From positions 4,512,001 through 4,576,000 of the forward strand of contig CBDFKD010000002.1 of assembly GCA_965248695.1 (NCBI GenBank): a DNA stretch of 64,000 nt. Reading direction: 5' to 3'. Within the stretch, counting starts at the first letter, position 1. The number at the start of each line of letters is the position of its first letter. Origin of the DNA: Acidobacteriota bacterium (GTDB lineage: Bacteria > Acidobacteriota > UBA890 > WLXD01). The notes beneath the pieces are model-generated. The model was given only the letters and a program-made list of their open reading frames with translations. It did no database searches and was not told the DNA's origin. Both the position numbers and the translations under genes were made by a program. This document shows, piece after piece, positions 18,053 to 40,574 of this stretch.

Positions 18053-19027
18053 ATGGCGATACGCGCGCCGATTCCGCTGTTGGTCCCGTTGCTGGCTTGT
18101 TTGGCGTGTACGGCGACGCCACCGGATCCTGCCACTTCGGCCGCCGAGCATCCTGAAGACGTCGCCGTAGAGCCGTTGCCGGGGTTGCCCGCCGGGGTCT
18201 TCTCGCGCGTGCACGAGATCGACGACGGCGTGTACGTGTACGAGCAGCTCGTCGGCCCTGGCGAGGTCGTCACCACGCTCAGCATGTTTGTGGTGACGCC
18301 GGAGGGCGTGCTGGTGGCCGACGGGCAGGGAAGCCCCGCAGACACGCAGCGCCTGATCCAAGAGGTCGCAAACGTCACCGCCGAGCCGATAACCCACGTG
18401 GTGATCTGCTCGGATCACGGAGATCACACGGCCGGCAACGTGGCCTTCCCTGCGCAGGCGGTCTTCTATGCGCATCCGGCCTCGTCGGCGACGCTTCGGG
18501 AACGGGCAACCCAGCCCGACCGACCGGCCGACGCGGCTCCCGTCACAGTCCCGACCGCGTTGGTGGACGACCGGTTGGAATTGCGAATTGGCGGCACGGC
18601 GGTCGAGATCTTGTTCCTCGGTCGGGCACATACCGGTGGTGATCTGGCCGTCTTTCTACCGGCGGAGAAGATCCTCTTCATGAGCGAGGCCTACTTCAAC
18701 GCGGTTTTCCCGGGTATGGGCACTGCGTACCCGACAGAATGGGTAGCGATGATCGATGCCGCCATGGCCATGGACGTGCGCGCGTACATACCGGGCCACT
18801 CGGTAGTCGGTTCGGCCGAGCTGCTGAGCCGGCAGGAGCTGGCGATGCATCGGCAGGCGGTCCAGCAAGTGATCGTCGAGGCTACGCGCCTTCACAGCGC
18901 CGGGCTGACGGCGGACGAGGCAGTAGAGGCCGCCGATTTCGGCGACCTGGAGGGCTGGGCTGATCGCCAGCTACAGGGGTCACGCGCCATACGGCGCGTA
19001 TACATGGAGCTCAACGATGAGTTGTAA
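18053..19027 (+). CDS. MBL-fold lipoprotein with a degenerate metal-binding motif
   Basis: Lipobox-like LLACLAC; THVVICSDHGDHTAGN (HxHxDH changed to SDHGDH); GRAHTGGD; LFMSE instead of GD; IPGH. Confidence 0.8.
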   Translation: MAIRAPIPLLVPLLACLACTATPPDPATSAAEHPEDVAVEPLPGLPAGVFSRVHEIDDGVYVYEQLVGPGEVVTTLSMFVVTPEGVLVADGQGSPADTQRLIQEVANVTAEPITHVVICSDHGDHTAGNVAFPAQAVFYAHPASSATLRERATQPDRPADAAPVTVPTALVDDRLELRIGGTAVEILFLGRAHTGGDLAVFLPAEKILFMSEAYFNAVFPGMGTAYPTEWVAMIDAAMAMDVRAYIPGHSVVGSAELLSRQELAMHRQAVQQVIVEATRLHSAGLTADEAVEAADFGDLEGWADRQLQGSRAIRRVYMELNDEL

Positions 19028-19040
19028 CGCTGAGGTATCG

Positions 19041-21515
19041 ATGATCTGCGACCCTGCCGTCGGTGACCGAGTAGCCAGCGCGCAGCGCCGGAGGCTTGGC
19101 GGCAAGTGGCTGGTGGCGGCCGGCGTGCTCGCTCTGCTGACGCAACCGACATCGGGGGCGCTGGCACAGGAATCAACGCGGCTCGAGCTGAGTGGCCTCG
19201 ACGAGCGGGTCGAGATCCTCGTCGACCGCTGGGGAATCAGCCACATTTATGCCGAGACCGAGCATGATCTATTCTTCGCACAGGGCTGGAACGCCGCGCG
19301 GGACCGACTGTTTCAACTCGAGCTCTGGCGCCGGCAGGCGACCGGCACCGTGGCCGAGATCCTCGGGCCGCGCGAGCTCGAGCGCGATGTTGGGACAAGG
19401 CTGTTCAAGTTTCGCCGCGATCTGGAACAGGAGCTGAGCCACTACCATCCCAACGGTGTGGCCATCATCGGCGCCTATGTCGACGGCATCAACGCCTACG
19501 TCATGCAGACGCGGCGCGATCCGAGCTTGCTGCCGATCGAGTTCTCGCTGCTCGGCATCACGCCCGGAATCTGGTCGCCGGAGATCGTCATCTCACGCCA
19601 CCAGGGACTCCTCGGCAACATCGGGGCCGAGCTGCGGACCGGCCGACTTGTCGCCCAGCTCGGCGCCGCGGTGGTGATGGATCTCGGTACCTACGGGCCG
19701 GGCGATCCAGTGCTGGAGCTTGACGCGGAAGTCGACGGCGCGGCGCTTGCAGAGGACATTCTCGGCACGTATAACGCTTTCCGTCGGAGTGTGCGTTTTC
19801 GGCCCGAGGACATCGTTGCCGAGCATCGCGGCGACGCCGAGTCGTTCGTGCGGCTCGAGCGCGCAACGGAAGCTTCTGCGACCGCGGTTGCCGCCGAACC
19901 GCAGCTGGACATCGGATCCAACAATTGGGTGGTCAGCGGCGCTCGTTCCGAGAGCGGCTATCCGATCATGGCAAACGATCCCCATCGGGTGCAGGCGGCC
20001 CCGTCGCTGCGCTACTGGGTGCACCTCGTGGCGCCGGGATGGAACGTCATCGGTGGCGGCGAGCCGAGCCTGCCGGGCATCTCGATCGGCCACAACGAAC
20101 ACGGGGCATGGGGACTGACGGTCTTCAGCACCGACGCGGAGGATCTCTACGTCTACGAGACCAATCCGGCCAACCCGGACGAGTATCGCTACCGCGACGG
20201 GTGGGAGCCGATGACCGTGCTGGTAGAGGAGATCGCGGTGAAGGGGCAGGACGCGCATCGCGCCGAGCTCAAGTACACCCGGCACGGCCCGGTGGTCTTC
20301 GAGGACCGGGCGCGCAACCTTGCCTATGCGGTGCGGGCTGGGTGGATGGAAATCGGCGGCTCGCCCTACCTGGCCTCGCTGCGAATGGACCAGGCAACCA
20401 CATGGGAAGAGTTCGTCGAGGCCTGCAATTACTCCAACATTCCGGGCGAGAACATGGTCTGGGCCGGGCGCGACGGTACGATCGGCTGGCAGGCCGTCGG
20501 CATTGCGCCGGTACGCCGGAACTGGAGTGGTCTGGTGCCGGTCCCCGGCGACGGTCGCTACGAATGGGACGGATACCTGCCGATCAAGGCCAAGCCGCGC
20601 GTGGTGAATCCACCCGAGGGCTATTTCGCCACGGCGAACAACGAGCTGATCCCGCGCGACTACGAATACATGGACGCGATTGGCTTCAGATGGTCGGATC
20701 CGTATCGCTGGCTGCGGCTCGTCGAGGTGCTGGGCGGCGGCACGCGCTTCTCGATAGCTGACATGATGCGGTTGCAAACCGACGAGCTGTCGATTCCGGC
20801 CCGACAGCTGGTACCGATGCTCGAGGAGGTGGAAGCCAGCGATCCTCGCGTCGAGAGCGCGCGGCATTCGTTGCTCGAGTGGGACTACGTGATCGACAAG
20901 CGGTCCGCATCAGCCGGTTTGTATGTGGCATGGGAAGCGCAGCTGAGGCGGCATGTTCAAGGCGCGCTGGTGCCCAGTGGGGCATCTCTGGGGCTGTCGA
21001 TGAAGAAGACGATCGATACGATCATGGTGCCGCCAGGGGCGCTCGGAGCCGATCCGTTGCGCGTCCGCGATCGGATCCTCATCACCTCGCTCGAAGCGGC
21101 GGTCGGTGCGCTGACCCAGAAGCTGGGCCCGGATCCGGGTGACTGGACGTACGGGCAGGTCGACTACAAGCACGCGCTGCTGCGCCATCCTCTCGGCACT
21201 GCGGTAAATGAGGCAATGCGGAGACGCCTCGAGGTCGGCCCGCTGCCGCGCGGTGGCTACAGCTACACCGTCAACCAGACCAGCGGCAACGACAACCAGA
21301 GCTCCGGGGCGTCGTTTCGGATCGTCATCGATACCGGTGACTGGGATCGCGGCGTCGGAATGAACACCCCGGGGCAAAGCGGCGATCCCGATTCACCCTT
21401 CTACCGCAACCTTTTCGAAGACTGGGCGAACGACCGTTTCCACCCGGTGTTCTATTCTCGCGATAAGATCGAGGCGGCGACAGCGGTGCGCATCGAGTTG
21501 ACGCCGGGGAGCTAG
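19041..21515 (+). CDS. Penicillin acylase family Ntn-hydrolase (peptidase S45)
   Basis: DRWGISHIYA, FFAQG..AARDRLFQ, autoprocessing site IG|SNNW, ANDPH, TRHGPV, TANN, PGQSG; signal peptide. Confidence 0.92.
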   Translation: MICDPAVGDRVASAQRRRLGGKWLVAAGVLALLTQPTSGALAQESTRLELSGLDERVEILVDRWGISHIYAETEHDLFFAQGWNAARDRLFQLELWRRQATGTVAEILGPRELERDVGTRLFKFRRDLEQELSHYHPNGVAIIGAYVDGINAYVMQTRRDPSLLPIEFSLLGITPGIWSPEIVISRHQGLLGNIGAELRTGRLVAQLGAAVVMDLGTYGPGDPVLELDAEVDGAALAEDILGTYNAFRRSVRFRPEDIVAEHRGDAESFVRLERATEASATAVAAEPQLDIGSNNWVVSGARSESGYPIMANDPHRVQAAPSLRYWVHLVAPGWNVIGGGEPSLPGISIGHNEHGAWGLTVFSTDAEDLYVYETNPANPDEYRYRDGWEPMTVLVEEIAVKGQDAHRAELKYTRHGPVVFEDRARNLAYAVRAGWMEIGGSPYLASLRMDQATTWEEFVEACNYSNIPGENMVWAGRDGTIGWQAVGIAPVRRNWSGLVPVPGDGRYEWDGYLPIKAKPRVVNPPEGYFATANNELIPRDYEYMDAIGFRWSDPYRWLRLVEVLGGGTRFSIADMMRLQTDELSIPARQLVPMLEEVEASDPRVESARHSLLEWDYVIDKRSASAGLYVAWEAQLRRHVQGALVPSGASLGLSMKKTIDTIMVPPGALGADPLRVRDRILITSLEAAVGALTQKLGPDPGDWTYGQVDYKHALLRHPLGTAVNEAMRRRLEVGPLPRGGYSYTVNQTSGNDNQSSGASFRIVIDTGDWDRGVGMNTPGQSGDPDSPFYRNLFEDWANDRFHPVFYSRDKIEAATAVRIELTPGS

Positions 21516-21565
21516 GAAACCTGCGGCTCTGGGAACCGGATCCGGGCTGCTAATCAAGGAGCGAG

Positions 21566-22027
21566 ATGATGAAGCGAGTGCTTTACGGTGCTGCGGCAGT
21601 GGGCCTGGTTATGGTGGGGGCCGTTGGCGCGCTGGTGGCGACAGCGGCCGAGGATGTCATCCGGCCGGCGGAGTTGACCGCCGCACAGATCGCCGGCGGC
21701 ATCTTCGACCACCCGGAGATCGTGGTGACGACTCGCGGGGATCGAACCACCCACGACTTCACCGCTCACCTGAGCAGCGACAAGAAGTTCATCAGCGGCA
21801 TGTACCGCGCTACCGAAGGGCATTGGACCTACGACGACGAGCCCTACGGCGTCGACGAGTTCATGTATTTCACCGAGGGGAGCGTCACGCTGACTTCGGT
21901 AGACGGAATGGTGCAGGTGATCGAAGCCGGCGAGTCAGCGACCATTCCGAAGGAGTGGAAGGGCACCTGGGACACCCAGGGTTACAGCAAGATCTACGTT
22001 ATCTACTCGGCCGACGGAGTCGAATAG
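21566..22027 (+). CDS. Secreted cupin (DUF861/EutQ-like cupin_3)
   Basis: Signal peptide; DEFMYFTEGSVTL...GESATIPKEWKGTW...KIYVI; AAGGAG RBS. Confidence 0.78.
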   Translation: MMKRVLYGAAAVGLVMVGAVGALVATAAEDVIRPAELTAAQIAGGIFDHPEIVVTTRGDRTTHDFTAHLSSDKKFISGMYRATEGHWTYDDEPYGVDEFMYFTEGSVTLTSVDGMVQVIEAGESATIPKEWKGTWDTQGYSKIYVIYSADGVE

Positions 22028-22073
22028 CGAAGCATTGAGGCGCCGATTACGCTGACGAGCTTCAGTCAGGGGG

Positions 22074-23183
22074 TTAGTCGTTCGCCGCGTCCAGATAGAT
22101 GTCGATGGTCGGGTCGACGTAGTCGTCGCTGTCGAAGTCACCGCGGTTCGATAGCAGGATGACGGTCAACCCGATCTCGGGATGGCGCGCGATGTGAGTG
22201 CGGAAGCCCACCCAGCTGCCGCCGTGCGAGATGCGCCGGTGGCCGCGATACTGGCCGATGACGAAGCCGAAGCCGTACCCGGTGTCCTCGCCGTTGTTGA
22301 GCTTGGCGGAAGTGAACGCCGCCTCGAGGGTGGCGGTGCTGACCAACAGCTCCGTGTACAGGGCTTGGTCCCACTCGTAGAGATCCTCGAGGGTGGAGAA
22401 CATGCTGCCCGAGCCCACGATGCCGTTGAGTGCGTGTTGGTCGTTCTCCACGTATCCGTCGCCAGCGGGATCGTAGCCGACGACACGGCGGGCAATATCG
22501 GGACCGGTGTGATCGTGAATCAGCGAGTCGCCCATCCCGAGCGGCGCGAAGATACGCTGCCGCATGAAGTCGGCGAAACCCATCCCTGACGCTGCCTCGA
22601 CCAGCGGTGCGAGCATGTCGTAGCCCGGGTTGCTGTATGAATAGCGCTCGCCCGGCGGAAACACGGGCTCGCCTTTGCTCGCCAGCTGCGCCAACGCATC
22701 GGCATTGGATGGCATCCCGGACGAGGTGTCGATGTCGTCGTAGTACTCCGGTAGGCCCCCCTGATGTACCAGGAGATGCCGGATCGTGATGCCCTCGCCG
22801 TAGCGGGCGAGCTCCGGCAGGTGGCGTGAGATCGGGTCGTCGTATTCCAGGTCGCCGCTCTCCGCCAGCGACATGATCGCCATGGCGGTGAACTGCTTCG
22901 AAAAAGAGCCGAGTCGAAATGTCGAATCGGGACCGATCGGGACCCGATGTTCGATCTCCGCATAGCCATAGCCGGCGCTGTGGACAACGACTCCGTCGCG
23001 GATGACCATGACGGCGACCCCGGGCTGAACGCCCTCGGTGAAGTGGGCGAACAGCTCGTCCACGCGCGCAGCGGGGTCGTCGGCCGGAGCCTCGACCGCG
23101 GGTGCGGCGCGACAAGCAACCAGCAGACACGACAGCAGAATCGCGGTCCACGGCACAATGCGCCGGCTGGTCGCGCTACGCAT
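22074..23183 (-). CDS. Serine hydrolase, beta-lactamase/D-aminopeptidase family lipoprotein
   Basis: Lipobox LVAC; SxxK in FRLGSFSKQFTA; YSN; HGG. Start overlaps the kamA stop by 8 bp. Confidence 0.88.
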   Translation of the reverse strand: MRSATSRRIVPWTAILLSCLLVACRAAPAVEAPADDPAARVDELFAHFTEGVQPGVAVMVIRDGVVVHSAGYGYAEIEHRVPIGPDSTFRLGSFSKQFTAMAIMSLAESGDLEYDDPISRHLPELARYGEGITIRHLLVHQGGLPEYYDDIDTSSGMPSNADALAQLASKGEPVFPPGERYSYSNPGYDMLAPLVEAASGMGFADFMRQRIFAPLGMGDSLIHDHTGPDIARRVVGYDPAGDGYVENDQHALNGIVGSGSMFSTLEDLYEWDQALYTELLVSTATLEAAFTSAKLNNGEDTGYGFGFVIGQYRGHRRISHGGSWVGFRTHIARHPEIGLTVILLSNRGDFDSDDYVDPTIDIYLDAAND

Positions 23184-24576
23184 GCTGTCCACGGTTGGCA
23201 CCGGCGGCCTCGATGGCGGCGTGGACCATGCGGTCCTGCTCGGCCGGATCGGCCCAGCGTCGCTGGCTGTCGACCGGCAGGGTGGCGATCGGATCGAAGT
23301 AGAGGAAGGTGCCCTCCTTGACCGACGGCGCAGTGTAGACGCTGATGCCGGTCTCCGGGTCGTAGTGCTCGTAGGAATGGATATCGCGCTTGCCGCCGCC
23401 TCCCGGCGCGTCGACAACCACGGTAGGCGTGTTGAATCCGGCCGTGACGCCACGGACGTGTTTCTCCACCGCGACGCCGGTTGCGACGCTGGTACGTAGG
23501 TCCTCGACGCCCTTCACGAGGTCGTGCATGTAGACATAGTACGGATGCACGTTGATGTAGCTGAGCCGTTTGACCAGCCGCTGCATGGTGACGACCTTGT
23601 CGTTCACCCCGCGCTGCATGACGCTCTGGTTGCGCGACGTGATACCGCGCTCGAACAGCACGTTCATGGCGTCGTGCGTGATGCCGGTGATCTCGTGGCC
23701 GGTGTTGAAATGAGTATGCAGCACCACTTCCTTGCCAAGCTGCCGGCCGCGCGCATGCACCGCGGTGAGCGCATCGACCCACTCGTGGTCGGTCAGCAGC
23801 TTCTGCGGCATGACCGCCGGACCCTTGGTGGCGAATCTCATGCGGCGAATCTGATCGATCTCGAGGAGCGCCATGCCGATGGTTCGGATCTGCTCGGCCC
23901 GTAGGTTGTACGCATCGCCGCCGGAAATGACGATGTCCTCGAGCTCAGGGCGCGAGCGCACGTACTCGAACATGCGCTCCCAGCGCTCGGCATTGACCTT
24001 GAGCTGAACCTTCTCGACCTCTTCGGTGTCGATTCCGACGGCGTAGCTTCGGGTGCAGAACCGGCAGTACACCGGGCAGGTGTCGAGGGCGAGAAACAGG
24101 GCCTTGTCGGGATACCGGTGCGTCAGGCCGGGTACCGGTGCGTCGGCCTGCTCGTGTAGCGAATCGAGCTCCAGCTTCGGGTGGTCGGGCAATAGTCGCG
24201 AGCCGACCGGAATGAACTGGATGCGCAGCGGATCCTCGTAGGGGTCCTCCCAGTTGATCAGGCTTAGCAGGTACGGAGAGACGCGTACGCTCATCGGCGA
24301 GTGCTCGAAACCGCGGCGCACGTCCTCGATGAAGGTGTCGTCCACTAGCCCGCTGATCGCCGCCAGCAGCTTCTTCGGGGTCGTGATCGAGTTCTTGGCC
24401 TGCCAAAGGTGGTCGAGGAACACGCCCTCGGAGACGTCACCATAGGCCGGGATGCGGTGCCAGAACTCACCACGCACGAGATCGCGATGACCCAACGAAG
24501 CAGGGTCGACCGGGCCTTTGATGTGCGGCGCGGTGACGTCCAGGTCGACGGTCTCGAGGTTGCCGGACATGCTCAT
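23176..24576 (-). CDS. kamA: Lysine 2,3-aminomutase (KamA family radical SAM/PLP)
   Basis: LTHRYPDK, CPVYCRFCTR (CxxxCxxC), ISGGD, PYYVYMHD, DAPGGGGK (PLP Lys). Both acidic residues that bind the lysine side chain are retained. Confidence 0.88.
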   Translation of the reverse strand: MSMSGNLETVDLDVTAPHIKGPVDPASLGHRDLVRGEFWHRIPAYGDVSEGVFLDHLWQAKNSITTPKKLLAAISGLVDDTFIEDVRRGFEHSPMSVRVSPYLLSLINWEDPYEDPLRIQFIPVGSRLLPDHPKLELDSLHEQADAPVPGLTHRYPDKALFLALDTCPVYCRFCTRSYAVGIDTEEVEKVQLKVNAERWERMFEYVRSRPELEDIVISGGDAYNLRAEQIRTIGMALLEIDQIRRMRFATKGPAVMPQKLLTDHEWVDALTAVHARGRQLGKEVVLHTHFNTGHEITGITHDAMNVLFERGITSRNQSVMQRGVNDKVVTMQRLVKRLSYINVHPYYVYMHDLVKGVEDLRTSVATGVAVEKHVRGVTAGFNTPTVVVDAPGGGGKRDIHSYEHYDPETGISVYTAPSVKEGTFLYFDPIATLPVDSQRRWADPAEQDRMVHAAIEAAGANRGQHA

Positions 24577-24666
24577 GATCCTTGCTTCACCAGGGTAGAT
24601 GGGGCCAACTTGCACGCCCGCCGGGCGCACGATCGCGCTATCGACGGGAGACGTCTGGCTGGTGAA

Positions 24667-24690
24667 GAATGTTGCGGTTGAACCACATTC
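24667..24690. promoter_or_regulatory. Candidate operator (GAATGT-N12-ACATTC) in the divergent kamA/ALDH intergenic region
   Basis: Perfect 6-bp inverted repeat with AT-richer arms between two divergent starts. No cognate regulator in the window. Confidence 0.25.
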
Positions 24691-24914
24691 CGGATCACAG
24701 AAGGTCTGCAGCACGGTACGAGATCGGCTGCTTGTTGCCGGCGTCCAGACCGGACCGTGGCCGATGGCTCATCTTCGCACCGCAGCACGCACGCCGGCAA
24801 CTGCGGTGCGTTTCTCCGTCTCGGCGGGTCGTTTTGCGGCGGCCTGGCTGCAGGAATACGATGTCGCTTGACTTGCTCCCGTGATCCAGCGATCCACCCC
24901 GAGAGGCGACACAG

Positions 24915-26474
24915 ATGGCCGAAGGTTTCCGCGTCACCTACGCGACGCTCGCCGCAGATCCGAACATGCACGCCGACTACGATCGCGGCATCGAAGAGGC
25001 TCGGACGTGGCTGGGGCAACGGCACGCGTTCTATGTGAACGGCGACGCTCGTGAGGGCAACGGCTGGCACACCGAAGTGTCTCCGATCGACGAACAGATC
25101 GTGATCGGCGAGTTCGCCAGGGCGACGCCGCAAGACGTTCTCGACGCTGTCGCTGCAGCCAAGGACTACGCGCCGGCCTGGGACGCCCTCGGGTACGAGA
25201 AGCGCGCCGAGATTCTCGACCGCGCCGCCGGGATTATCGAAGAGCGGCGCTACATGATGTCGGCGCTGATGGCGATGGAGGTCGGGAAGAACCGCCTCGA
25301 AGCCGTTGGCGATGTACAGGAGTCGGCCGACCTCATCCGTTGGAATACCCACGCGATGATCCAAGCGAAAGGGTTCCGCGTGCCGATGCAACCACTAGGC
25401 GAGGCCGGCGACTACTACGACATCATGCGTCCGTACGGTGTGTGGGGGGTTATCAGCCCGTTCAACTTCCCGATGGCCCTGGCCGCGGGCCCGTCGTCGG
25501 CAGCGCTGGCGGCCGGCAACACGGTGGTGTTCAAGCCCGCGTCGCAGGGGGCCGCCATCGGGCACATGGTCTACGAGGCCTACCGTGACGCCGGCATGCC
25601 GCCCGGCGCGTTCCACCTGGTGTCCGGATCGGGGGAGGTCGTCGGGGACGGCATTGCCACCAACCCAGACGTCGACGGACTCACCTTTACGGGTTCCTAT
25701 GAGGTCGGTATGAAGGTCTACCGGGAGTTCGCCCGCGACTACCCGAAACCGGTGATCTGCGAGATGGGCGGCAAGAACCCAGCGATCGTCACCAAACATG
25801 CCAATCTCGACAAGGCGACCGACGGCGTGTGGCGCAGCGCCTTCGGTCTTCAGGGTCAGAAATGCTCCGCCAACTCGCGGGTGTACGTGGAGCGCGAGCT
25901 GTACGACGATTTCGTTGCTCAGCTGAAGGAGAAAACCGAGACCCTGGTGGTCGGCAACCCTCTGGAACAGGGGGTCTTTATGGGACCGGTAATCAATCAG
26001 GCCGCGGTCGACACCTTCCGGGAGGCGGCCGCGGAAGCCAAGCGCGCCGGCGACGTGATTGCCGGCGGCGAGGTGATCACCGAGGGCGACATGGCGCGCG
26101 GCAACTTCGTCCAACCAACGGTGGTACACGTGCCGCGCGACTCATGGTTGTGGAAACGCGAACTGTTCGTGCCGTTCGTGGCTGTGGATGCGGTGGACTC
26201 GCTGGACGAGGCACTGGAGCGCGCCAACGACACGGAATACGGCCTTACAGCAGGGCTCTTCAGCGAGGATCCGGCCGAGATCGACCGCTTCTGCAGCGAG
26301 ATCGAAGCCGGAGTCATCTACATTAACCGCGCTTCGGGTGCCACCACCGGCGCCTGGCCGGGCGCTCAACCGTTCGGTGGCTGGAAGGGATCGGGGACGA
26401 TGGGCAAGGCGGCTGGGGGCCCCTACTACGTCCTTCAGTACATGCGGGAGCAATCCAGGACGGTCATCGCATGA
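24915..26474 (+). CDS. Aldehyde dehydrogenase, 1-pyrroline-5-carboxylate dehydrogenase-like
   Basis: VISPFNFP, FTGS, EMGGKN, SAFGLQGQKCSANSR, YGLTAG and QPFGGWKGSG are signatures of the P5CDH subfamily. Confidence 0.88.
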   Translation: MAEGFRVTYATLAADPNMHADYDRGIEEARTWLGQRHAFYVNGDAREGNGWHTEVSPIDEQIVIGEFARATPQDVLDAVAAAKDYAPAWDALGYEKRAEILDRAAGIIEERRYMMSALMAMEVGKNRLEAVGDVQESADLIRWNTHAMIQAKGFRVPMQPLGEAGDYYDIMRPYGVWGVISPFNFPMALAAGPSSAALAAGNTVVFKPASQGAAIGHMVYEAYRDAGMPPGAFHLVSGSGEVVGDGIATNPDVDGLTFTGSYEVGMKVYREFARDYPKPVICEMGGKNPAIVTKHANLDKATDGVWRSAFGLQGQKCSANSRVYVERELYDDFVAQLKEKTETLVVGNPLEQGVFMGPVINQAAVDTFREAAAEAKRAGDVIAGGEVITEGDMARGNFVQPTVVHVPRDSWLWKRELFVPFVAVDAVDSLDEALERANDTEYGLTAGLFSEDPAEIDRFCSEIEAGVIYINRASGATTGAWPGAQPFGGWKGSGTMGKAAGGPYYVLQYMREQSRTVIA

Positions 26475-27811
26475 GCAGCATCGAGCTTTCCATCGCCGAC
26501 CTCGCTGCGGCATCGGCACCGCATATTGTCGTCGAGCCCCCTGGCCCGCGGGCGCAGGCGATCGTCGAACGGGATCGGCGCGTGACGTCGCCATCGTTGC
26601 CGCGCGCCTATCCGTTTGCGCCGCGCCGCGGTAGCGGCTCGGTGATCGAGGACGTCGACGGCAACCTGTTTCTCGACCTCAACGCCGGTATCGCCGTCAA
26701 TGCCACCGGCCACTCGCATCCGGCCGTGGTCGAGGCGATTCAGAGGCAGGCAGCCGAATTGCTCCACTACTCGGCATCGGATTTCTTCCTGCCGGTGTAC
26801 TCGGAGGTGTGTCAGCGGCTCGACGAGATCTCGCCGTTCTCTGGACCGGCGCGCGCGTTCCTGACCAACTCGGGCACCGAGGCCGTCGAGGCGGCGCTCA
26901 AGCTGGCCCGGTACGTCACCGGACGGCAGAACGCGATCGCGTTTTACGGCGCGTTTCACGGACGCTCCTACGGCAGCGTGTCGTTGACCGCATCGAAGGC
27001 TAAGTACCATCGCGGCTTCGGACCCCTGCTCCCCGGCGTGTACCACGCACCGTACGGCGACGGCTACGGGTGGGGTCTCGATCTGGCGGATGTCGAGGGC
27101 GGGTTGGCGAGCATCGATTACATCGAAAAAGTGCTCTTCAAGCACGTCCTGGCCGCCGACGAAGTAGCGGCGATCTTCGTCGAGCCGGTGCAGGGCGAGG
27201 GCGGCTATATCGTCCCGCCGCAGGAGTTCTTTACCGAGTTGCGGCGCCTGTGCGACGAGCACGGCATCCTCCTGGTGGTCGACGAGGTGCAGTCGGGTAT
27301 GGGCCGCACTGGCAAGACCTGGGCCGTCGAGCATTTCGGTGTCGAGCCCGACGTGCTCGTCGCCGGCAAGGGCATCGCCAGTGGCATGCCCCTCGGCGCG
27401 ATGATGGCGCGCGATGAGCTGATGACCTGGGAGGTCGGCTCGCATGGCTCGACCTACGGTGGCTCGCCGACACCCTGCGCGGCGGCGCTCGCGACCATCG
27501 ATCTGATCGAGAACGGTCTCAAGCAGAATGCCGCCGAGGTCGGCACGTACCTCCTGGACGGTTTGCGCGAGCTGCAGACGAGGCGCGCGATGATCCGTGA
27601 CGTGCGCGGCTTTGGCCTCATGATCGGTGTCGAGTTCCCGAACCACGAGGTGATGGCGCAAATAGAGCAGGAGGCGTTCAAGCGCGGCCTGCTGATGCTC
27701 GGCTGCGGCGACAACGTGATTCGCATCGCGCCGCCGCTGGTGTTCACGCGCGAACAGGTCGACCGGGGGCTCGAGGTGTTCGACGAGGTTCTCGGCACCG
27801 TCGACGGATAG
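26471..27811 (+). CDS. Class III omega-aminotransferase (4-aminobutyrate/ornithine/lysine type)
   Basis: DVDGNLFLD, NSGTEAVEAA, FHGRS, EPVQGEGGY, DEVQSGMGRTG, AGKG; ATGA overlap with the ALDH. Confidence 0.9.
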   Translation: MSSIELSIADLAAASAPHIVVEPPGPRAQAIVERDRRVTSPSLPRAYPFAPRRGSGSVIEDVDGNLFLDLNAGIAVNATGHSHPAVVEAIQRQAAELLHYSASDFFLPVYSEVCQRLDEISPFSGPARAFLTNSGTEAVEAALKLARYVTGRQNAIAFYGAFHGRSYGSVSLTASKAKYHRGFGPLLPGVYHAPYGDGYGWGLDLADVEGGLASIDYIEKVLFKHVLAADEVAAIFVEPVQGEGGYIVPPQEFFTELRRLCDEHGILLVVDEVQSGMGRTGKTWAVEHFGVEPDVLVAGKGIASGMPLGAMMARDELMTWEVGSHGSTYGGSPTPCAAALATIDLIENGLKQNAAEVGTYLLDGLRELQTRRAMIRDVRGFGLMIGVEFPNHEVMAQIEQEAFKRGLLMLGCGDNVIRIAPPLVFTREQVDRGLEVFDEVLGTVDG

Positions 27812-27821
27812 GAGCGTTGCG

Positions 27822-28739
27822 GTGAGCAAGGTCGTCTCGATGCAGCAGGCCGTGCGCGAGCTGGTGTGCGATGGCGACACGGTGGCGATCGAGGGGTTCA
27901 CACACCTGATCTGCTTCGCTGCCGGTCACGAGATCATCCGCCAACGCAAGCGCGATTTGACGCTGGCGCGTATGACTCCCGACTTGATCTACGACCAGAT
28001 GATCGGTGCCGGCGTGGCCACCAAGCTGATCTTCTCGTGGCTGGGGAACCCGGGCGTCGGTTCACTGCACGCGGTCCGACGGCGCGTGGAGACGGGCTTC
28101 CCGGCGCCGCTCGCGATCGAAGAGTACAGCCATTACGGCATGGTGTGCCGGTACATGGCCGGGGCCTCGCGTTTGCCGTTCATGCCGCTGCGCTCGTACG
28201 AGGAATCCGATATTCCGGCGGTGAATGATCAGATCCGCTGGCTGGACGACCCCTTCGGCAGCGGCAGGATTGCGGTTGTGCCGCCGCTCAACGCCGACGT
28301 GGCCATCATCCACGCGCAGCGCGCCGACGCGGAGGGCAACGCCCAGATCTGGGGGCTGCTCGGCTGTCAGAAGGAGGCCGCGTTCGGCGCCAGGCGGGTC
28401 ATCCTGGTGGTCGAGGAACTCGTCGGTGAGGACGTCGTACGCCAGGACCCGAATCGGACGATGATCCCCGGCATCAAGGTGGACGCCGTGGTGGTGGAGC
28501 CGTTCGGCTGCCACCCGTCGTACGTACAGGGACATTACGACCGGGACAACGATTTCTACGTCAAGTGGGACGCCATCGCGCGCCATCCCGATGACCTCGA
28601 CACGTGGCTCCGCGACTACGTCTACGACCTGTCGTGCCATGCCGACTACGTGGACAAGTTCGGGACCGCCTACTGGGAGCGCCTGCAGCCGACCGGTCCG
28701 GCGCTATCAGGTGAGGTGGATTACGGAGAGTACGCATGA
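27822..28739 (+). CDS. gctA: Family I CoA-transferase subunit A (glutaconate CoA-transferase/CatI type)
   Basis: EGFTHLI.FAAGHEIIRQ, RMTPDLIYDQMIG, SWLGNPGVGSLH, IHAQRAD..GN, HPSYVQGHYDRD. Symbol is family-level only. Confidence 0.85.
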   Translation: MSKVVSMQQAVRELVCDGDTVAIEGFTHLICFAAGHEIIRQRKRDLTLARMTPDLIYDQMIGAGVATKLIFSWLGNPGVGSLHAVRRRVETGFPAPLAIEEYSHYGMVCRYMAGASRLPFMPLRSYEESDIPAVNDQIRWLDDPFGSGRIAVVPPLNADVAIIHAQRADAEGNAQIWGLLGCQKEAAFGARRVILVVEELVGEDVVRQDPNRTMIPGIKVDAVVVEPFGCHPSYVQGHYDRDNDFYVKWDAIARHPDDLDTWLRDYVYDLSCHADYVDKFGTAYWERLQPTGPALSGEVDYGEYA

Positions 28740-29518
28740 GCAGCGGCTCGCCGGATCTCGGGTTCACCCGCAAGGAGATGATGATCGTCCAGTCGGCGCG
28801 CGCGCTCGCGGGCGAGAAGATCTGCTTTGTCGGTGTGGGTATGCCGAACATTGCCGTGAACCTCGCCAAGCGCACCGTGTCGCCCGATATCCAGATGGTC
28901 TACGAGGCCGGCGTCTTCGGCGCGGCTCCGGCGCGCTTGCCCTTGTCGATCGGCGACCCGACGCTGGTTACCGGCGCGATTGCGGCCACCAGCATGTTCG
29001 AGCTCTTCGCCTACTACTTGCAGGCCGGCCTCATCGACGTGGGGTTCCTGCAGGGGGCGCAGATCGACCGCTACGGCAACCTGAACACAACCACCATCGG
29101 TGATTACGATAGCCCGAAGGTTCGGCTGCCAGGGTCGGGGGGCGCTTGCGAGATTGCCATCAACGCGCGCCGCATCTTCATCATCATGCCGCAAAAGCGG
29201 CGCTCGTTTGTCGAGCAGCTCAGCTTCCAGACGTCACCGGGACACAATCCCGATCCGAGCGCGAAGCGCAGCAGTGGCTGGCTCGGAACCGGGCCACAGG
29301 TGGTGATCACGGATCTCGCCGAATACGGGTTCGCCGAGCGCACCGGCGAGATGACGCTGCGGTCGCTTCACCCGGGCGTGTCGCTGGATGAAGTTCTCGA
29401 CAACACCAGCTGGCAGCTCAAAGTGGCTGATGATGTCGGCAGCACGCCAGTGCCGACCGCCGAGGAGCTCCGCTTGATTCGCGAGGAGCTCGATCGCGAG
29501 GGCCGCTACTCGCGATGA
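28736..29518 (+). CDS. gctB: Family I CoA-transferase subunit B (GctB/CatJ type)
   Basis: FVGVGMP, catalytic Glu in MVYEAG, LPLSIGD, GFLQGAQIDRYGNLNTT, RLPGSGGA; ATGA overlap. Symbol is family-level only. Confidence 0.85.
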   Translation: MSSGSPDLGFTRKEMMIVQSARALAGEKICFVGVGMPNIAVNLAKRTVSPDIQMVYEAGVFGAAPARLPLSIGDPTLVTGAIAATSMFELFAYYLQAGLIDVGFLQGAQIDRYGNLNTTTIGDYDSPKVRLPGSGGACEIAINARRIFIIMPQKRRSFVEQLSFQTSPGHNPDPSAKRSSGWLGTGPQVVITDLAEYGFAERTGEMTLRSLHPGVSLDEVLDNTSWQLKVADDVGSTPVPTAEELRLIREELDREGRYSR

Positions 29519-30840
29519 GCCATATCTTCCCGCGGACGTCCGGGCCGCCGCGCACGGCGGTTGCTGCCGATGGCGTGTGGATCACCGATGCTGACGGCAA
29601 GCGGTATCTCGACGGATGCGGAGGCGCCATCGTGGTCAATATCGGCCACGGTGTCGCCGCGATCCAGCAAGCGATGAGCGCGCAAGCCGAGAAGATCTCG
29701 TACGTTCACGCCACCGACTTCACCACCGAGGCCGTCGAACAGTTGGGCTCGACGCTAGCGCCGTACGTTCCGATGGACGCGCCGGCGGTTTACCCGGTAT
29801 CGGGAGGTGGCGAGGCCATCGAGACCGCCTTCAAGATGGCGCGCTCCTTCCACCTCGCCAACGGTCATGAGGGTCGACACAAGATCATTGCCCGACTGGG
29901 CTCCTACCACGGCAATACTGTCGGGGCGCTCGATGCCAGCGGGCGTGCCCCGTTGCGCGCTCCGTATCTTCCCTGGCTCGACAAGGCGATCCACGTGCCG
30001 CCGGTGTACGAGTACCGCTGCTCGATGTCCCAACACCCCGTCGGCTGCGGCCGCGCCCACGCCGACGTATTGGAGCGCGTGATTCTCGAGCAGGGGCCAG
30101 ACACGGTGGCGGCATTCGTCGCCGAGCCCATCGTCGGCGCCACGCTCGGTGCGGCGGTGCCACCCGACGACTACTGGCCGGCCGTCGCCGAGGTCTGTTC
30201 CCGCCACGGCGTCCTGCTGATCGCCGACGAGGTGATGACCGGCTTTGGCCGTACAGGAACCTGGTTCGGGGTCGACCATTGGGGAATACACCCGGACATT
30301 ATCGCCAGCGCCAAGGGGTGTTCAGCAGGGTATTGGCCTCTCGGCCTGGCGATTGCGAGCGGCGAGGTCGCCGAGACCCTCGGCCAGGCCGGTTTCGTGC
30401 ATGGATTCACCTACTCCCACCACGCCGTCGGTGCCGCCGTAGGAACGGCGGTGGTCGAGCGGCTCGTACGCGACGGCCTGGTTGAACGATCGCGCATCAA
30501 GGGCGAGCGCCTCAAGACAACCCTCGAGCAGGCACTGGGCGACCACCGGTGCGTTGGCGATATCCGCGGTCGCGGCCTGCTCGTTGGCCTCGAGTTGGTG
30601 GCCCAGCCCGACAGCAAGCAGCCGTTCCCACGCTCCGACCGGATGGCAGAACGTGTCGTCGAAGCCTGCATGCAACGAGGTTTGATGGTTTACCCCAACA
30701 CCGGATTCCTCGGCGATGACGGTGCCGGTGATCTCATTCTCATCGGGCCTCCGTTCGTCATCACGGACGAAGAGATGGATCAAATGGTCGAGATCATCAG
30801 CTCGGTGCTCGCCGAGATCGAGACTCTGCCGCCCGCGTAA
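29515..30840 (+). CDS. Class III aminotransferase, B. subtilis YodT-like (candidate beta-amino acid transaminase)
   Basis: YLDGCGGAIVVNIGHG, SYHGNTVGAL, FVAEPIVGA, ADEVMTGFGRTG, GLMVYP..G...GD.ILIGPPF. Motif pattern resembles YodT from memory; ATGA overlap. Confidence 0.88.
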   Translation: MSHIFPRTSGPPRTAVAADGVWITDADGKRYLDGCGGAIVVNIGHGVAAIQQAMSAQAEKISYVHATDFTTEAVEQLGSTLAPYVPMDAPAVYPVSGGGEAIETAFKMARSFHLANGHEGRHKIIARLGSYHGNTVGALDASGRAPLRAPYLPWLDKAIHVPPVYEYRCSMSQHPVGCGRAHADVLERVILEQGPDTVAAFVAEPIVGATLGAAVPPDDYWPAVAEVCSRHGVLLIADEVMTGFGRTGTWFGVDHWGIHPDIIASAKGCSAGYWPLGLAIASGEVAETLGQAGFVHGFTYSHHAVGAAVGTAVVERLVRDGLVERSRIKGERLKTTLEQALGDHRCVGDIRGRGLLVGLELVAQPDSKQPFPRSDRMAERVVEACMQRGLMVYPNTGFLGDDGAGDLILIGPPFVITDEEMDQMVEIISSVLAEIETLPPA

Positions 30841-30883
30841 CCGGCCGTCGCCGTCCCACGGCGCGACCTATTGATCGGAGGTC

Positions 30884-31110
30884 CGGCGCGAAAGCCGCAT
30901 GGGTCCGTTGGCCGGGCCCGACCGGCACCGAGATCGGCACCTCGGGCGGGGCCCCGGTCGATGGACTCGGGAAGTGAATGCGGCGGAGAGGTCGCGGGTC
31001 TCCCGACCGAGGTAGCCGAGCTCGCTGCAGGTGGGGCCCGGCCGACAGAACCCCGCGCCCTTCACCCTCCTCCGCAGACACGGCCAACGGACACTGACAG
31101 CTTCGCGCCG
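30884..31110. repeat. Imperfect long inverted repeat between convergent genes (MITE/REP-like or large hairpin)
   Basis: CGGCGCGAA..GTCCGTTGGCCG (30884-30914) pairs with CGGCCAACGGAC..TTCGCGCCG (31081-31110). A third, internal arm GGGCCCGGCCGAC lies near 31034. Confidence 0.45.
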
Positions 31111-31134
31111 CTCATCCGGCGACCACGCGGAGCG

Positions 31135-34100
31135 CTACTCCTCCGAGTCGTCCTCTTCTCCCTCCGGCTTCGGTGGCCGAGGCCGATCGAGCCACAGCCT
31201 CACGCCTCCGCCCCAGTGAGCAGCGCCCTTGCGATCGACGCTGTGCTCGCCCTCGTAGAGGTAATCGAGGATCGCTTTGTCCCACTGCAGGCCGGCGGTT
31301 GCGACGATGTCCATCCAGTCGCCGTAGGCGGTTTCGTCCGGTGCCTCGGTGCTGCCGGTCCAGATCGTCACGCGCGGGTTGAACCCACCCCCGAAGGCGC
31401 CGCCCTCACCGGAGCGACCTCCCTTCAAGGGCATCTGGACGTTGACCCCGTTGGTCATGTCCTGCCGGTAGATGACCGGCTCATACTCGCCGCCGTAGCG
31501 CTGGTAGCGATCGTAGGCACGCTCGTTCATGGCACGCACGTTTTCCGCCGCGTTGATGTAGCGCGTCACGTAGTCGCGAATGCTGAACGCCGCATCCTTG
31601 TGGCGCGGGAAGTCGGGATCGTCCAGGTAGCCGAAGCCGGGGATGAACCAGCCGCGGTTGACGCTCCAGTTGCGTTCGGTGATGCGACCGCGACGCACCA
31701 GCCCGGCGTACTCGGAGAACAGCTGGACGACTTCGTGGGACGGATAACCGTGCGGGTTGAGGAAGATGTCGGGCAGCCACGTCCGCCACAGCGTCGGCCG
31801 AACCTTCGACTCCGGGTAAATGGGCATGTCTTCACGCCCACCGTTGGTTGCATCCTGCCCCAGCGAGCCCAGGTATCCGGCGTGGAGGATGAAGTCGGGC
31901 GTGATCTCGTACAGGTCATAGGCCAGCTGCGCGCCGTCCGGATTGGTGAACGGATGGATGATCACGTTCACATCCAGCAGCTTCTTCTTGAACTCGTCGT
32001 CGGTCAGCAACAGCTCGGCCAGCTTGAGCACATGACTGGTCGATGAGACTTCGTTGGCGTGCTGGCGGGCGGAGTAGACGACGGTCGGTTTGTAAGTCGT
32101 GAACTTGTAGCGCGACCAGTGACTCGCCTCGATCGGGGGCATGAGGACCATCGCCCAGATGTCCTTGCCGAGGTAGCTGCGACCGGCCCAGTACATCGTT
32201 GCCTCGGGGAACGTCGACATGCGCGCCAGGATGGCGTGCCCTTCGGGCGGCGGGATGGGTGTTTCCCACTGCACCAGCTCCTCGCCCTGATAGCTGTAGC
32301 CGCCTTCCGGCAGCAGCTCGGCGATCGTCGGGTAGGGGGCCGGGGTGCCGTTGGCGTCGAGCGTGGCGATCGTCTGGGTATCGCGGTCGATCTCCCATTC
32401 CCACCCGGCCGCCAGTCGGATCGTGCCCAATCCGTCGAAGGCGAGCTCATCGTCGTACAGGTCGCGAGCTCGAAGCTGTTCGAGATTGTCGATCATCGCT
32501 GTGGCCTGAACGGCGCTCATGACGCGGCTGTCGACCTGGTATTCGTCAGCCTGCTGGAGCAGGTCGGTGCGGTGATCGTCCTCGAAGTCCACCTTGACGC
32601 GCAGGTCGATGCTGTCGAGGCCCACCTGACCGCTACGAACGGTGGCTGCTAGCGCGCTCGGTCGTTCGACGGCGACCAGCGGGACGTCACGGCGTGCCTG
32701 GCCGGAGGTCCCATCGGCTTCGGTGTAGTCGATCACCACCGCCGGCCGGCTGGTGGCAAACCCGGTGAGGCGGATCTTCGCCCAACCCGCTTCGCCACTG
32801 CTGTTGGGCCGCATGATCGGAATCACACGACCGATGTGGTCGAGCTCCTCGCCGCGTGCCATGCGACCCAGGACGCGGAAGAAGAACAACGTGGGGAAAT
32901 AGATCTCCTCGTGGAGCGAATCGAGGGATGAGATGTACTCGTTGTCGATCCCGAGGCGGTAGTCCGGCTCGCTGAGGCTCACTTCGACGGTGAGCTCGCC
33001 GAAGTACGGTGCGTCGGAGTCGCGCGGGTTGCCCTCGTGCAACTCCATGACGTGGTCGTACAGACCACTCAGCGTCTGATTCTGGTAGTGATCCCAGAAC
33101 GCTTCGATGTCGGTGACGATGCGCTGGTCTATCAGCGTGTCGGCGCCGCTGGTGGCGTGGATCCAGCCCGTAGTGACGCGCACCAGCTCATAGTCGTCGA
33201 AGCGGGCGTAGTACGGCTGCAGCACGTATTTGGGCTCGAAAGTCCTACGCAGCAGCTCGCTGCCGCTCGGTGAGGTCACCACGACCTCGTACGTCGACGC
33301 ATCGAGCGGCGCCATCTCGAAGTCCACCAGCTCCGGATCGATCGACAGGTCCGCCGACATGACCTCGTCGACCGGCCAGATCTCTTTCAGCCAGCGCACC
33401 TTGCTGTACATCGCCTGCTGCGGCCACTCCTCCGGCGGACCAGCCTCGGCGAAATGGACCCGGATGCCGCCGATGGCCGGATCGGCGCTGTCCGACTGCA
33501 TCCGACGCAGCTCAGGGACGATCACCTCGCGCAGCCACGAGAAGCCCTGCTTGAAGGCCGAGAGCACCGTGACGTTCGTGCCGTCGGCGGCGGCTCCCGC
33601 CTCGATCAACAGGGCCCGGGCCTGCTCGGCGATCCGGTGTCGGATCTCGGGCGGCTCGCTCAGCCGCGCTTCCACCCGCACCGGCCGACCACGGCGCACA
33701 CCCGGAATCACCCGGGCACGGAACTGCGTCCAGAAGGCCTCGACCTCGGAGGGGATCTCGATCTGTTCCTCGTTGAGGACGGCGGCATTCTGCACGTCGC
33801 GATCATCCATCAGCACCGACACGTCGGCGATGCCGAGAACCGCGAGTCGCTGGCGCACGACCGCCTCCAGTCCGGGCTCGATCTTCTCTAGCGACACCGT
33901 GACCCGGGCAACATCGATCTGCTTGCCACGCAGCTCCTCGATCATGCGGTCGAGCTTGTAGAGAGCTGCTGCGGCCTGCCCTGCCGGGCTGCGTTGCGAA
34001 AGGAATCGCCACACCGCGAGCTCGACTTGATCCACCGTGGCGCGATCGTGTCCGCGTTCTGACAGGTGGGGGAACTGCTGCGACAGCTGCTCGAGTGCGC

Positions 34101-35433: not shown

Positions 35434-35435
35434 CA

Positions 35436-39061: not shown

Positions 39062-39064
39062 GAT

Positions 39065-40558
39065 CTACTCGCTGGTCGCACCGTAGACGAGCTCTTCGAT
39101 CGCACCGTGCACGCGGTTGACGGTAGCGGCGGATGGCGGCCGGGTGGTGCGCGAGACCAGAAGCGTCGCGAGGACGTTCACCAGCAGGGCCCAAACGCCG
39201 CCGTGTAGGGACAGCGGGTGCGGCCATACGACGAGGGTGAGAAACAGGGTCACGAGGCCGAGTCCGATGCCCGCCAGCACTCCGTTGGCAGTGAACCGAA
39301 CACTGGACGGGAAGGTGACACCAAGCACCGCCGGCAAGAGCTGTAGCGCCCCGGCGCCCGAGAGCGTTACCAAGATGACGAGGTACTCGAAGGTGTAGAC
39401 GCTGAGGATGTAGCCGATGATCAAGAACCCGACGATGCAAACCCGGCTCACCGTGACGTAATGGGCCAGATCGGCGTCGGCGCGCACGTACCGTTGATAG
39501 ATATCGCGGGTGAGAACCGCCGAGTTGGCGTGAAGGATCGAATCGAGCGTCGACATTGCTGCTGCCGTGGCCCCAGCCAGAATCACCCCCGTGAGCCAGG
39601 CAGGGGCGTAAGCAAAGAGCAGCTCCGGGAAGATCCTGTCGGGGATGGCAATTCCCGGCATCGCCAGCGCTCCGCCGAGACCGACGAAGGCGGTCGGAAT
39701 GAACAAAGTGAGCAGGAAGATCGGGATCGTGGCGCCGAGCCACTTCAGCGTCCGCGCATCGACCGCCGTGTAGTAGCGGATCATGATGTGCGGCTGCAGG
39801 ACGACTCCGAACGACAGCGCGATCATCATCCCGAACCACATCGGATAGGTGAAGAAATCGCGTGGGCCCGGGATCGTCAGCAGGTCGGGTCGTTGCTCCC
39901 TGACCGCTTCGAGCAGTTGCATCGGTCCGCCGAACAGCTCATAGGACAGGTAGATCGCCCCGGCCCACACCGCGACGTACATCCAAACGCCCTGCAAGAC
40001 GTCGGTCCAGTAGACCGCGCGCAAGCCTCCCGCCATGAGGTAAGTTGCGGCCACGATGAGCAGCACTGCGGTAGCGGCCTCGAACGAGACCCGGTCGCCG
40101 GAGGCGGCGCTGATGATGTAGCCCAGTCCCTGCGCTTGCACCTGGATGTACAGAATCGTGAAGACGACCGATACCGATGCCACTACCACCCGCACCGCCT
40201 CACTCTCGTAGTAATCCGCCAGCATGTCGGCGGGAGTCATGTAGTGGAACTTCTTCCCGAGAGCCCAGATGCGCGGCCCGAGCACGTAGGTGATCGCACC
40301 GGTCATCAAGGTCCAGGTTCCCGCGACCCAGAAGCCGATGCCGTGCGTGTAGAAGAAGCCGCTGCTGCCCAAGAACGCGAAGGCACTGTGGTAAGTGGCG
40401 ACCATCGTCAGGTAGAGGACGAAGAACCCGGCGCGACGCCCGTACAGCAGGAAGTCCTCGAGGTTGACCTCGAGACGGCGATTTGCGACGACGCCCAACA
40501 GCAACGTCATCACCAAGTAGGCGCCGATCAGCGAAAGCGCGACCACCCAAGGCTCCAC
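39065..40558 (-). CDS. Sodium:solute symporter family protein
   Basis: About 13 TM helices; DFLLYGR, SAFAFLG, GGLRAVYWTDVLQG, AAAMSTLDS. Confidence 0.9.
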   Translation of the reverse strand: MEPWVVALSLIGAYLVMTLLLGVVANRRLEVNLEDFLLYGRRAGFFVLYLTMVATYHSAFAFLGSSGFFYTHGIGFWVAGTWTLMTGAITYVLGPRIWALGKKFHYMTPADMLADYYESEAVRVVVASVSVVFTILYIQVQAQGLGYIISAASGDRVSFEAATAVLLIVAATYLMAGGLRAVYWTDVLQGVWMYVAVWAGAIYLSYELFGGPMQLLEAVREQRPDLLTIPGPRDFFTYPMWFGMMIALSFGVVLQPHIMIRYYTAVDARTLKWLGATIPIFLLTLFIPTAFVGLGGALAMPGIAIPDRIFPELLFAYAPAWLTGVILAGATAAAMSTLDSILHANSAVLTRDIYQRYVRADADLAHYVTVSRVCIVGFLIIGYILSVYTFEYLVILVTLSGAGALQLLPAVLGVTFPSSVRFTANGVLAGIGLGLVTLFLTLVVWPHPLSLHGGVWALLVNVLATLLVSRTTRPPSAATVNRVHGAIEELVYGATSE

Positions 40559-40574
40559 GCTCAGATCCCCCGGC

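Follow-up and report, generated by a model that had tools for sequence, protein, structure and literature searches.

We analyzed 64 kb of DNA (contig CBDFKD010000002.1, positions 4,512,001 to 4,576,000; hereafter the window) from the 5.9-Mb genome of an Acidobacteriota bacterium. The window carries a kamA-type gene, which encodes a radical-SAM/pyridoxal phosphate (PLP) amino acid 2,3-aminomutase, divergent from a widespread five-gene operon for an aldehyde dehydrogenase (ALDH) resembling 1-pyrroline-5-carboxylate (P5C) dehydrogenase (P5CDH), two class III aminotransferases (AT1 and AT2), and the two subunits of a family I coenzyme A (CoA)-transferase. We found that kamA and the operon are separate modules with separate evolutionary histories, and that the six-gene pairing is seen only in one soil Acidobacteriota genus. 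A preliminary description of this DNA had proposed that the six genes form one pathway leading from lysine through beta-lysine and 3-aminoadipate to 3-oxoadipyl-CoA. While the inferences about the individual components held or improved, no conserved six-gene pathway emerged. The lysine route is a plausible hypothesis for the genus, although conservation does not support it, and we place at roughly 45% the probability that it operates there as a lineage-specific coupling.

Distribution of kamA and the five-gene operon

The distribution of its parts weighs against the lysine route. In the kamA-anchored set, which comprised the best 80 of at least 586 confirmed stretches from a species-level genome collection, three loci belonged to the same Acidobacteriota genus and had the identical six-gene arrangement (all three of the genus loci with enough flanking sequence); synteny within a genus spans little evolutionary distance. 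The other 77 loci bore myxobacterial or unspecific (delta)proteobacterial titles and a KamA of 68 to 75% identity, and none of them had an operon gene within 10 kb, save for one ALDH match at 28% identity. Clustering of the genes around kamA in the non-acidobacterial loci found no neighbor conserved in more than 20 loci. Five large genomes from the kamA set were without a CoA-transferase orthologue, with a 31% match in one of them. Among 401 Myxococcota genomes, a KamA orthologue was present in 142 and a CoA-transferase homologue in 5; both occurred in 3, leaving 139 of the 142 KamA-bearing genomes without the transferase. In the three genomes with both, the genes were 253 kb apart or on different contigs. 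The KamA type of the window (about 47 to 81% identity) is mostly stand-alone in these 142 genomes.

The operon was followed from its CoA-transferase in 80 metagenome loci (698,554 bases), kept from at least 593 confirmed. All five operon genes were present in 17 of the 80 loci and were colinear in 16. Flanking sequence was sufficient on both sides in 27 loci; of these, 14 had the order ALDH-AT1-CoA-transferase AB-AT2, 7 had the same order without AT2, 4 had the transferase alone and 2 had other arrangements, so that the ALDH-AT1-CoA-transferase order was kept in 21. None of the 80 loci contained a KamA match, and none of the 20 with at least 2 kb of sequence upstream of the ALDH gene had kamA there. 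No gene beyond the five was conserved with the operon in more than six of the loci examined.

A similar separation was found within the Acidobacteriota, where 401 genomes yielded the CoA-transferase in 39 and some KamA-family gene in 130 (the latter including G076 and G169, which are flagged as unpublished). Of 34 genomes outside the genus with the CoA-transferase, 19 had no KamA-family match, and three others outside the genus with KamA orthologues of 57 to 62% identity were without the CoA-transferase. Among 40 relatives, both proteins had orthologues in the four genomes of the genus and nowhere else; the other sampled genera of its family and order lacked them. Judged by their labels, the nearest relatives outside the genus also differ, being myxobacterial for KamA and Actinomycetota metagenome-assembled genomes (MAGs) for the CoA-transferase. 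Since each part is mostly found without the other, there is no conserved six-gene pathway; the operon commonly lacks kamA, which the preliminary description had itself named as an observation that would refute its proposal. Two imports, or a single import from an unsampled donor, may have ended head-to-head across the spacer between kamA and the operon, in which sequence blocks are conserved.

A second KamA-like protein, termed type B, was considered and set aside. It shares 34 to 37% identity with the window KamA, and 13 of its 14 Acidobacteriota carriers also have the CoA-transferase, but these carriers belong to two families and the genes are never adjacent, so that we treated the association as family history. 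The type B proteins (loci L220 to L224, Acidobacteriota families f31 and f33) are about 470 to 520 amino acids (aa) long and retain the residues described below for KamA, namely those of the cluster motif, the aspartate pair and the PLP lysine; FVGK replaces GGGGK, and they score 163 to 177 bits against the KamA-family cut-off of 199. In two of the loci, the gene adjoins one for an ABC transporter ATPase.

Families and conserved residues of the encoded proteins

The six open reading frames (ORFs) lie where the preliminary description had placed them, and its family assignments (KamA, a P5CDH-like ALDH, two Aminotran_3 proteins and two CoA_trans proteins) match the Pfam and NCBIfam profiles. 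Its account of a kamA gene divergent from a tightly coupled operon was confirmed by the ORF positions and the junction sequences: the genes overlap by ATGA at three operon junctions and are separated at the fourth by 10 bp, where GGAG precedes a GTG start.

The kamA gene (23176..24576, minus strand) was assigned the start ATG 24576, which follows AAGGA and gives 466 aa; ATG 24570 would give 464 aa, the length of the database copy of this protein. Both are likelier starts than the upstream GTG that opens the ORF as listed (23176..24714, minus strand, 512 aa). KamA exceeds the cut-off of the KamA-family model TIGR00238 (222.2 bits against 199.2) and aligns with the lysine 2,3-aminomutase 2A5H of Clostridium subterminale (E 5e-65). 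In this alignment, the CxxxCxxC motif (C167-x3-C171-x2-C174 in the 466-aa numbering) falls on that of 2A5H, and K396 of the GGGGK stretch falls on K337, the PLP-binding lysine. D352 and D389 align with D293 and D330, which hold the epsilon-amino group of the substrate in 2A5H. Across 15 members of the clade, neither the three cysteines nor the two aspartates vary. These lysine-type residues strengthen the original assignment as a lysine aminomutase, and KamA most likely makes beta-lysine from L-lysine.

The first gene of the operon (24915..26474, plus strand) encodes the 519-aa ALDH (Aldedh, 447 bits). Its best NCBIfam matches are P5CDH models, namely NF002852 (404 bits, cut-off 648) and TIGR01237 (396 bits, cut-off 660); on TIGR01236 it reaches 248 bits (cut-off 614), and it is thus far below the cut-off of each of these three curated models. 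The nearest structures are the P5CDH 3RJL and PutA. Elsewhere in the genome, a separate gene scores 798 bits on TIGR01236 (cut-off 614). Since a genuine P5CDH is encoded elsewhere, the operon ALDH is not needed for proline breakdown and appears to be a spare P5CDH paralogue. The P5CDH-like assignment was upheld.

AT1 (26471..27811, plus strand, 446 aa) resembles ornithine/lysine omega-aminotransferases and passes the model NF004426 with 585 bits (cut-off 552). Its nearest solved structure is 7VNO of Pyrococcus horikoshii (E 4e-115), which is probably the protein PH1423. According to a published table, P. horikoshii PH1423 is an ornithine delta-aminotransferase that takes L- and D-ornithine as well as L- and D-lysine, and accepts 5-aminovalerate, 6-aminohexanoate and gamma-aminobutyrate (GABA) more weakly (PMC9986279).

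AT2 (29515..30840, plus strand, 441 aa) is an omega-transaminase-like and YodT-like class III aminotransferase. The nearest structure of AT2 is 3I4J (E 6e-85), which is also given as nearest to Bacillus subtilis YodT in Table 1 of PMC6522883. The profiles did not reach their cut-offs: AT2 scored 466 bits on NF005685 (cut-off 485) and 415 bits on NF005375 (cut-off 535), a model that passes in one of 14 control genomes.

The two CoA_trans subunits are encoded at 27822..28739 (subunit A, plus strand, 305 aa, GTG start, Gct/PcaI-like) and 28736..29518 (subunit B, plus strand, 260 aa, Gct/PcaJ-like). For both, the nearest solved structure is the glutaconate CoA-transferase 1POI (E 1e-44 for A and 3e-43 for B), and in subunit B, E57 falls on the catalytic glutamate within the VESG stretch of GctB. 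The match to the ScoAB-type model TIGR02429 is only 24 bits. In databases, subunit A goes under the name glutaconate CoA-transferase subunit A, or CoA-transferase without further detail. A tblastn search against plasmids returned 147 records, all below 60% identity. On three of these plasmids (Pseudomonas veronii pPVG21, a Rubrobacter indicoceani plasmid and an Azospirillum oryzae plasmid), homologous pairs stand directly before pcaF or a thiolase gene within annotated pcaHG/pcaB/pcaD/pcaC clusters, that is, in the position of PcaIJ. Identity to these proteins is 49 to 54.5% for subunit A and 45.5 to 49.6% for subunit B, and the scores are 256 to 292 bits versus 156 bits to 1POI. A Natrialba magadii homologue of subunit B is annotated as 3-oxoadipate--succinyl-CoA transferase subunit B. 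For a transferase acting on 3-oxoadipate, the PcaIJ-position matches are much stronger support than the match to Gct.

The rest of the genome was searched for complementary enzymes. No pcaH match and no ScoA/PcaI-type subunit were found in the genome, and a 3-oxoadipate-like acid would therefore have to come from another source. The genome has six thiolase-family genes, none above the pcaF cut-off, and neither a thiolase gene nor a pca gene lies within the kamA/operon cluster. The preliminary description had also inferred that the acetylase/deacetylase pair of the B. subtilis cluster is replaced here. Neither an acetyltransferase nor a deacetylase is encoded among the six genes or their neighbors, and the best match in the genome to an AblB-type beta-lysine acetyltransferase was 23 bits against a cut-off of 205. 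BKACE was considered as the missing cleavage enzyme and was not counted as part of the cluster, since the nearer of the genome's two copies lies 22 kb away (479-1390, plus strand, 323 bits) and is followed by a 3-hydroxyacyl-CoA dehydrogenase gene (the pair spanning 479-2375). Such a pair resembles those of carnitine-type beta-hydroxy acid breakdown.

The proposed route and its rivals

From the observed gene anatomy, protein families, conserved residues and module distribution, we infer the following route as the most likely one in this genus, including each substrate, the sequence of reactions and the link between KamA and the operon. KamA would convert L-lysine into beta-lysine, from which AT1 would take off the epsilon-amino group to give 3-amino-6-oxohexanoate. 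The P5CDH-like ALDH would oxidize this aldehyde, or its cyclic pyrroline form, to 3-aminoadipate. AT2 would then turn the beta-amino group of 3-aminoadipate into a keto group, and the PcaIJ-like CoA-transferase would produce 3-oxoadipyl-CoA; the CoA transfer may come before the second transamination. One of the general thiolases of the genome could split 3-oxoadipyl-CoA into succinyl-CoA and acetyl-CoA. Outside the genus, the operon must draw on another supply, which would be imported beta-lysine or a different amine.

By family resemblance, the operon fits beta-lysine better than ornithine, alpha-lysine or diamines. With ornithine as the substrate, the transferase and AT2 would be without a role, and with alpha-lysine, the transferase would be without one. 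Diamines agree poorly with an ALDH resembling P5CDH and an aminotransferase resembling those of ornithine, and they would require a single ALDH to catalyze two steps. Some Acidobacteriota carry the CoA-transferase and an AT2-like gene only, without ALDH and AT1, which suggests a core module leading from a beta-amino acid to a beta-keto acid and its CoA ester. The kamA gene next door in one lineage is an independent pointer to beta-lysine, which we discounted because the window had been picked for exactly that adjacency.

Further points against the route come from the protein scores, the CoA-transferase tree and the operon context elsewhere. On the lysine 2,3-aminomutase equivalog TIGR03820, KamA scores 249.7 bits, far under the cut-off of 525.4, and lysine is therefore our best guess for its substrate and is not demonstrated. 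A quick maximum-likelihood (ML) tree was built from 110 subunit A sequences. In it, the four rows with pca context group with eight stand-alone rows from Acidobacteriota (support 100, branch 0.79), and the clade of the window protein lies outside this group. The proposal of a 3-oxoadipate-type CoA-transferase thus keeps its 45 to 55% identity to the PcaIJ-position pairs and loses a place within the pca-context clade. In the same tree, the clade of the genus is nested among the metagenome five-gene loci. The nearest relatives of the transferase outside the genus, in the Actinomycetota MAGs, share 71 to 77% identity. In six related metagenome loci, a P5C reductase gene stands upstream of the operon, joined in three by a proline dehydrogenase gene and in four by a TetR regulator gene. 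The P5C reductase and proline dehydrogenase hint at ornithine/proline metabolism. In four metagenome loci, a histone-deacetylase-family amidohydrolase gene and a pyruvate kinase gene follow AT2; these contexts fit ornithine/proline or acetyl-polyamine metabolism and, with more imagination, N-acetyl-beta-lysine deacetylation as well.

In the leading rival reading, kamA and the operon are unrelated neighbors, the operon degrading a diamine or an omega-amino acid, for example cadaverine through 5-aminovalerate and glutarate to glutaryl-CoA, or a putrescine/GABA analogue of this series. AT2 would be the diamine transaminase and AT1 the omega-amino-acid transaminase, the ALDH would oxidize both aldehydes, the CoA-transferase would activate the dicarboxylate, and KamA would act as it does when stand-alone in Myxococcota. 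This reading draws support from the usual occurrence of each module without the other, from the putrescine and polyamine:pyruvate transaminases among the structural relatives of AT2 (6GWI and 9J4Z), from the GABA transaminases in the family of AT1 and from glutaconate CoA-transferase (1POI) as the nearest solved structure of the transferase. The amidohydrolase after AT2 in the four metagenome loci would fit acetylated polyamines. However, AT1 passes NF004426 and stays below threshold on models for GABA transaminases (375 bits, cut-off 507), the ALDH scores better on P5CDH models than on succinate-semialdehyde dehydrogenase models, and it would have to serve two steps alone. The closest transferase relatives with informative context are at the PcaIJ position, and the adjacency of kamA and the restriction of both modules to this genus among its relatives would be left to chance. 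We consider this explanation rather unlikely.

A different division would make AT1 and the ALDH a RocD/RocA-type pair of ornithine aminotransferase and P5CDH feeding glutamate, with the CoA-transferase and AT2 as a separate module for beta- or omega-amino acids and with KamA uninvolved. The P5C reductase and proline dehydrogenase contexts favor this division, as do the position of the ALDH as the genome's top match to the RocA-type model TIGR01237 and the Acidobacteriota in which the transferase and the AT2-like gene occur by themselves. The genuine P5CDH elsewhere in the genome and the scores of the ALDH, far under all P5CDH cut-offs, speak against it; so do the gene order kept in 21 of the 27 metagenome loci, 14 of them with AT2, and the translational coupling of the operon genes in the window, which argues for one pathway. 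On these grounds, it appears quite improbable. The substrate of the aminomutase might also be a different basic amino acid, ornithine or arginine for example, with the operon taking the matching beta-amino acid, for instance via 3-aminoglutarate and 3-oxoglutarate. KamA passes only the general family model, with 250, 194 and 188 bits on the lysine, glutamate and arginine models, all under their cut-offs, and its C-terminal LAM_C match is marginal. Nevertheless, the lysine model is the best of the specific ones, both lysine-type aspartates of 2A5H are kept and invariant in the clade, and we know of no ornithine 2,3-aminomutase. We consider this reading very unlikely.

The route from beta-lysine through 3-aminoadipate to 3-oxoadipyl-CoA could have a wider form, in which the five-gene operon in general serves many soil bacteria as an oxygen-tolerant, B12-free means of consuming free or deacetylated beta-lysine, and the genus made L-lysine accessible to it by acquiring a myxobacterial-type kamA beside the operon promoter. 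We regard this wider form as doubtful. A full-text literature search, spelling variants included, found no 3-aminoadipate pathway, and a literature search centered on beta-lysine and its aminomutases yielded no account of the proposed route; the preliminary description likewise knew of none. If true, this would be a new pathway of lysine catabolism that feeds into the beta-ketoadipate funnel, and it would allow lysine or beta-lysine breakdown that is compatible with aerobic life and independent of B12. Amino acid catabolism would be joined to the end steps of the beta-ketoadipate pathway, which are known otherwise from the degradation of aromatic compounds, and functions would be assigned to a conserved operon common in soil metagenomes. 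Whether or not kamA is linked to it, the operon is a clearly delimited catabolic module that lends itself to testing. KamA of the stand-alone clade, for its part, occurs in about a third of the sampled Myxococcota genomes.

Flanking sequence, operon variants and known systems

The divergent intergenic region between kamA and the operon is 338 bp long (24577..24914), and sequence blocks in it are conserved in an alignment of the four genomes of the genus. Two perfect inverted repeats lie within 24734-24810 (24734-24744/24791-24801, with 11-nt arms, and 24776-24785/24801-24810, with 10-nt arms); they are mutually exclusive and stand upstream of a conserved TTGCGG-N17-TACGAT. The repeats could be an operator or alternative hairpins. 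No match to the sigma-70 consensus was found in the intergenic region. A search of positions 20000-33000 returned no Rfam family apart from a sub-threshold miRNA model within AT2, which was taken as a chance match.

The genes flanking the cluster (cupin, beta-lactamase-like, penicillin amidase, M14-domain, hydantoinase A/B and symporter genes) look unrelated to it. A run adjoining kamA (18053-23453) encodes a metallo-beta-lactamase-fold protein, a penicillin amidase (656 bits) and a class C beta-lactamase/D-aminopeptidase-like protein. On the downstream side, convergent with the operon, the minus strand encodes a protein of 1433 aa that carries an M14 carboxypeptidase domain and, after it, hydantoinase B, hydantoinase A and a sodium:solute symporter (31135-40627). 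An MttB-family methyltransferase gene is found at 41039-42751.

In related loci, the genes inserted between those of the operon vary and include S51 peptidase, PIN, DUF1232 and glyoxalase-like genes. Between subunit B and AT2, some metagenome versions of the operon have an S51 peptidase gene (cyanophycinase/dipeptidase E family) or PIN genes (L093:11447-12184, L111:11381-11770 and L121:7906-8295). In another Acidobacteriota family, one locus (L200, G283:C7:169000-188500) has the order AT1, AT2-like, ALDH, CoA-transferase A, CoA-transferase B; its genome has no KamA orthologue, and a short KamA-family gene of 365 aa lies elsewhere in it.

The five known systems nearest to these genes each share part of the arrangement. 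GctAB (1POI) provides the nearest solved structure for both CoA-transferase subunits, but the similarity of 156 bits is well below that to the PcaIJ-position proteins, and the window has no 2-hydroxyglutaryl-CoA dehydratase context. RocD and RocA likewise combine an omega-aminotransferase of a basic amino acid with a P5CDH-like ALDH. In contrast to that pair, the window ALDH falls under all P5CDH cut-offs with a second P5CDH in the genome, and the operon that holds the aminotransferase and ALDH also encodes a CoA-transferase and another transaminase. Clostridial lysine fermentation (KamA, KamDE, Kdd, Kce and Kal or Kat) also starts with lysine 2,3-aminomutase, and its Kat is a precedent for transamination of a beta-aminoacyl-CoA (PMC3149608). 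Unlike that system, the Acidobacteriota genome gave no match to a B12-dependent lysine 5,6-aminomutase (PF09043), in a search run without a positive control. Kat is HemL-like and AT2 is not, and the nearer BKACE gene is remote from the cluster and stands beside a 3-hydroxyacyl-CoA dehydrogenase gene.

The PcaIJ-PcaF system, in its Gct-like type from P. veronii, Rubrobacter and Azospirillum plasmids, has subunits of similar size and 45 to 55% identity to those of the window, and the VESG-aligned glutamate is kept in subunit B. The window differs in having no adjacent thiolase or pca genes and no pcaH in the genome, in the partners of its transferase, which are aminotransferases and an ALDH, and in the place of the transferase outside the pca-context clade.

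The kamA-yodT-yodSR-yodQP cluster of B. subtilis represents an acetyl-beta-lysine type of route, and an acetyl-beta-lysine pathway has reportedly been found in Pseudomonas B4 as well. In B. subtilis, KamA (BSU19690) and YodT (BSU19740) are both SigE-dependent (PMC6522883). Where that cluster has an acetyltransferase and a deacetylase, the window has an omega-aminotransferase and a P5CDH-like ALDH. Its CoA-transferase is Gct/PcaIJ-like rather than ScoAB-like, as the score on TIGR02429 indicates, and its kamA is divergent, outside the operon and paired with it in one genus only. Nevertheless, in both the window and the yod cluster, a kamA-type gene adjoins a class III aminotransferase of the 3I4J group and a two-subunit family I CoA-transferase, and both appear to follow the same logic, in which a beta-amino group becomes a beta-keto acid and then a CoA ester.

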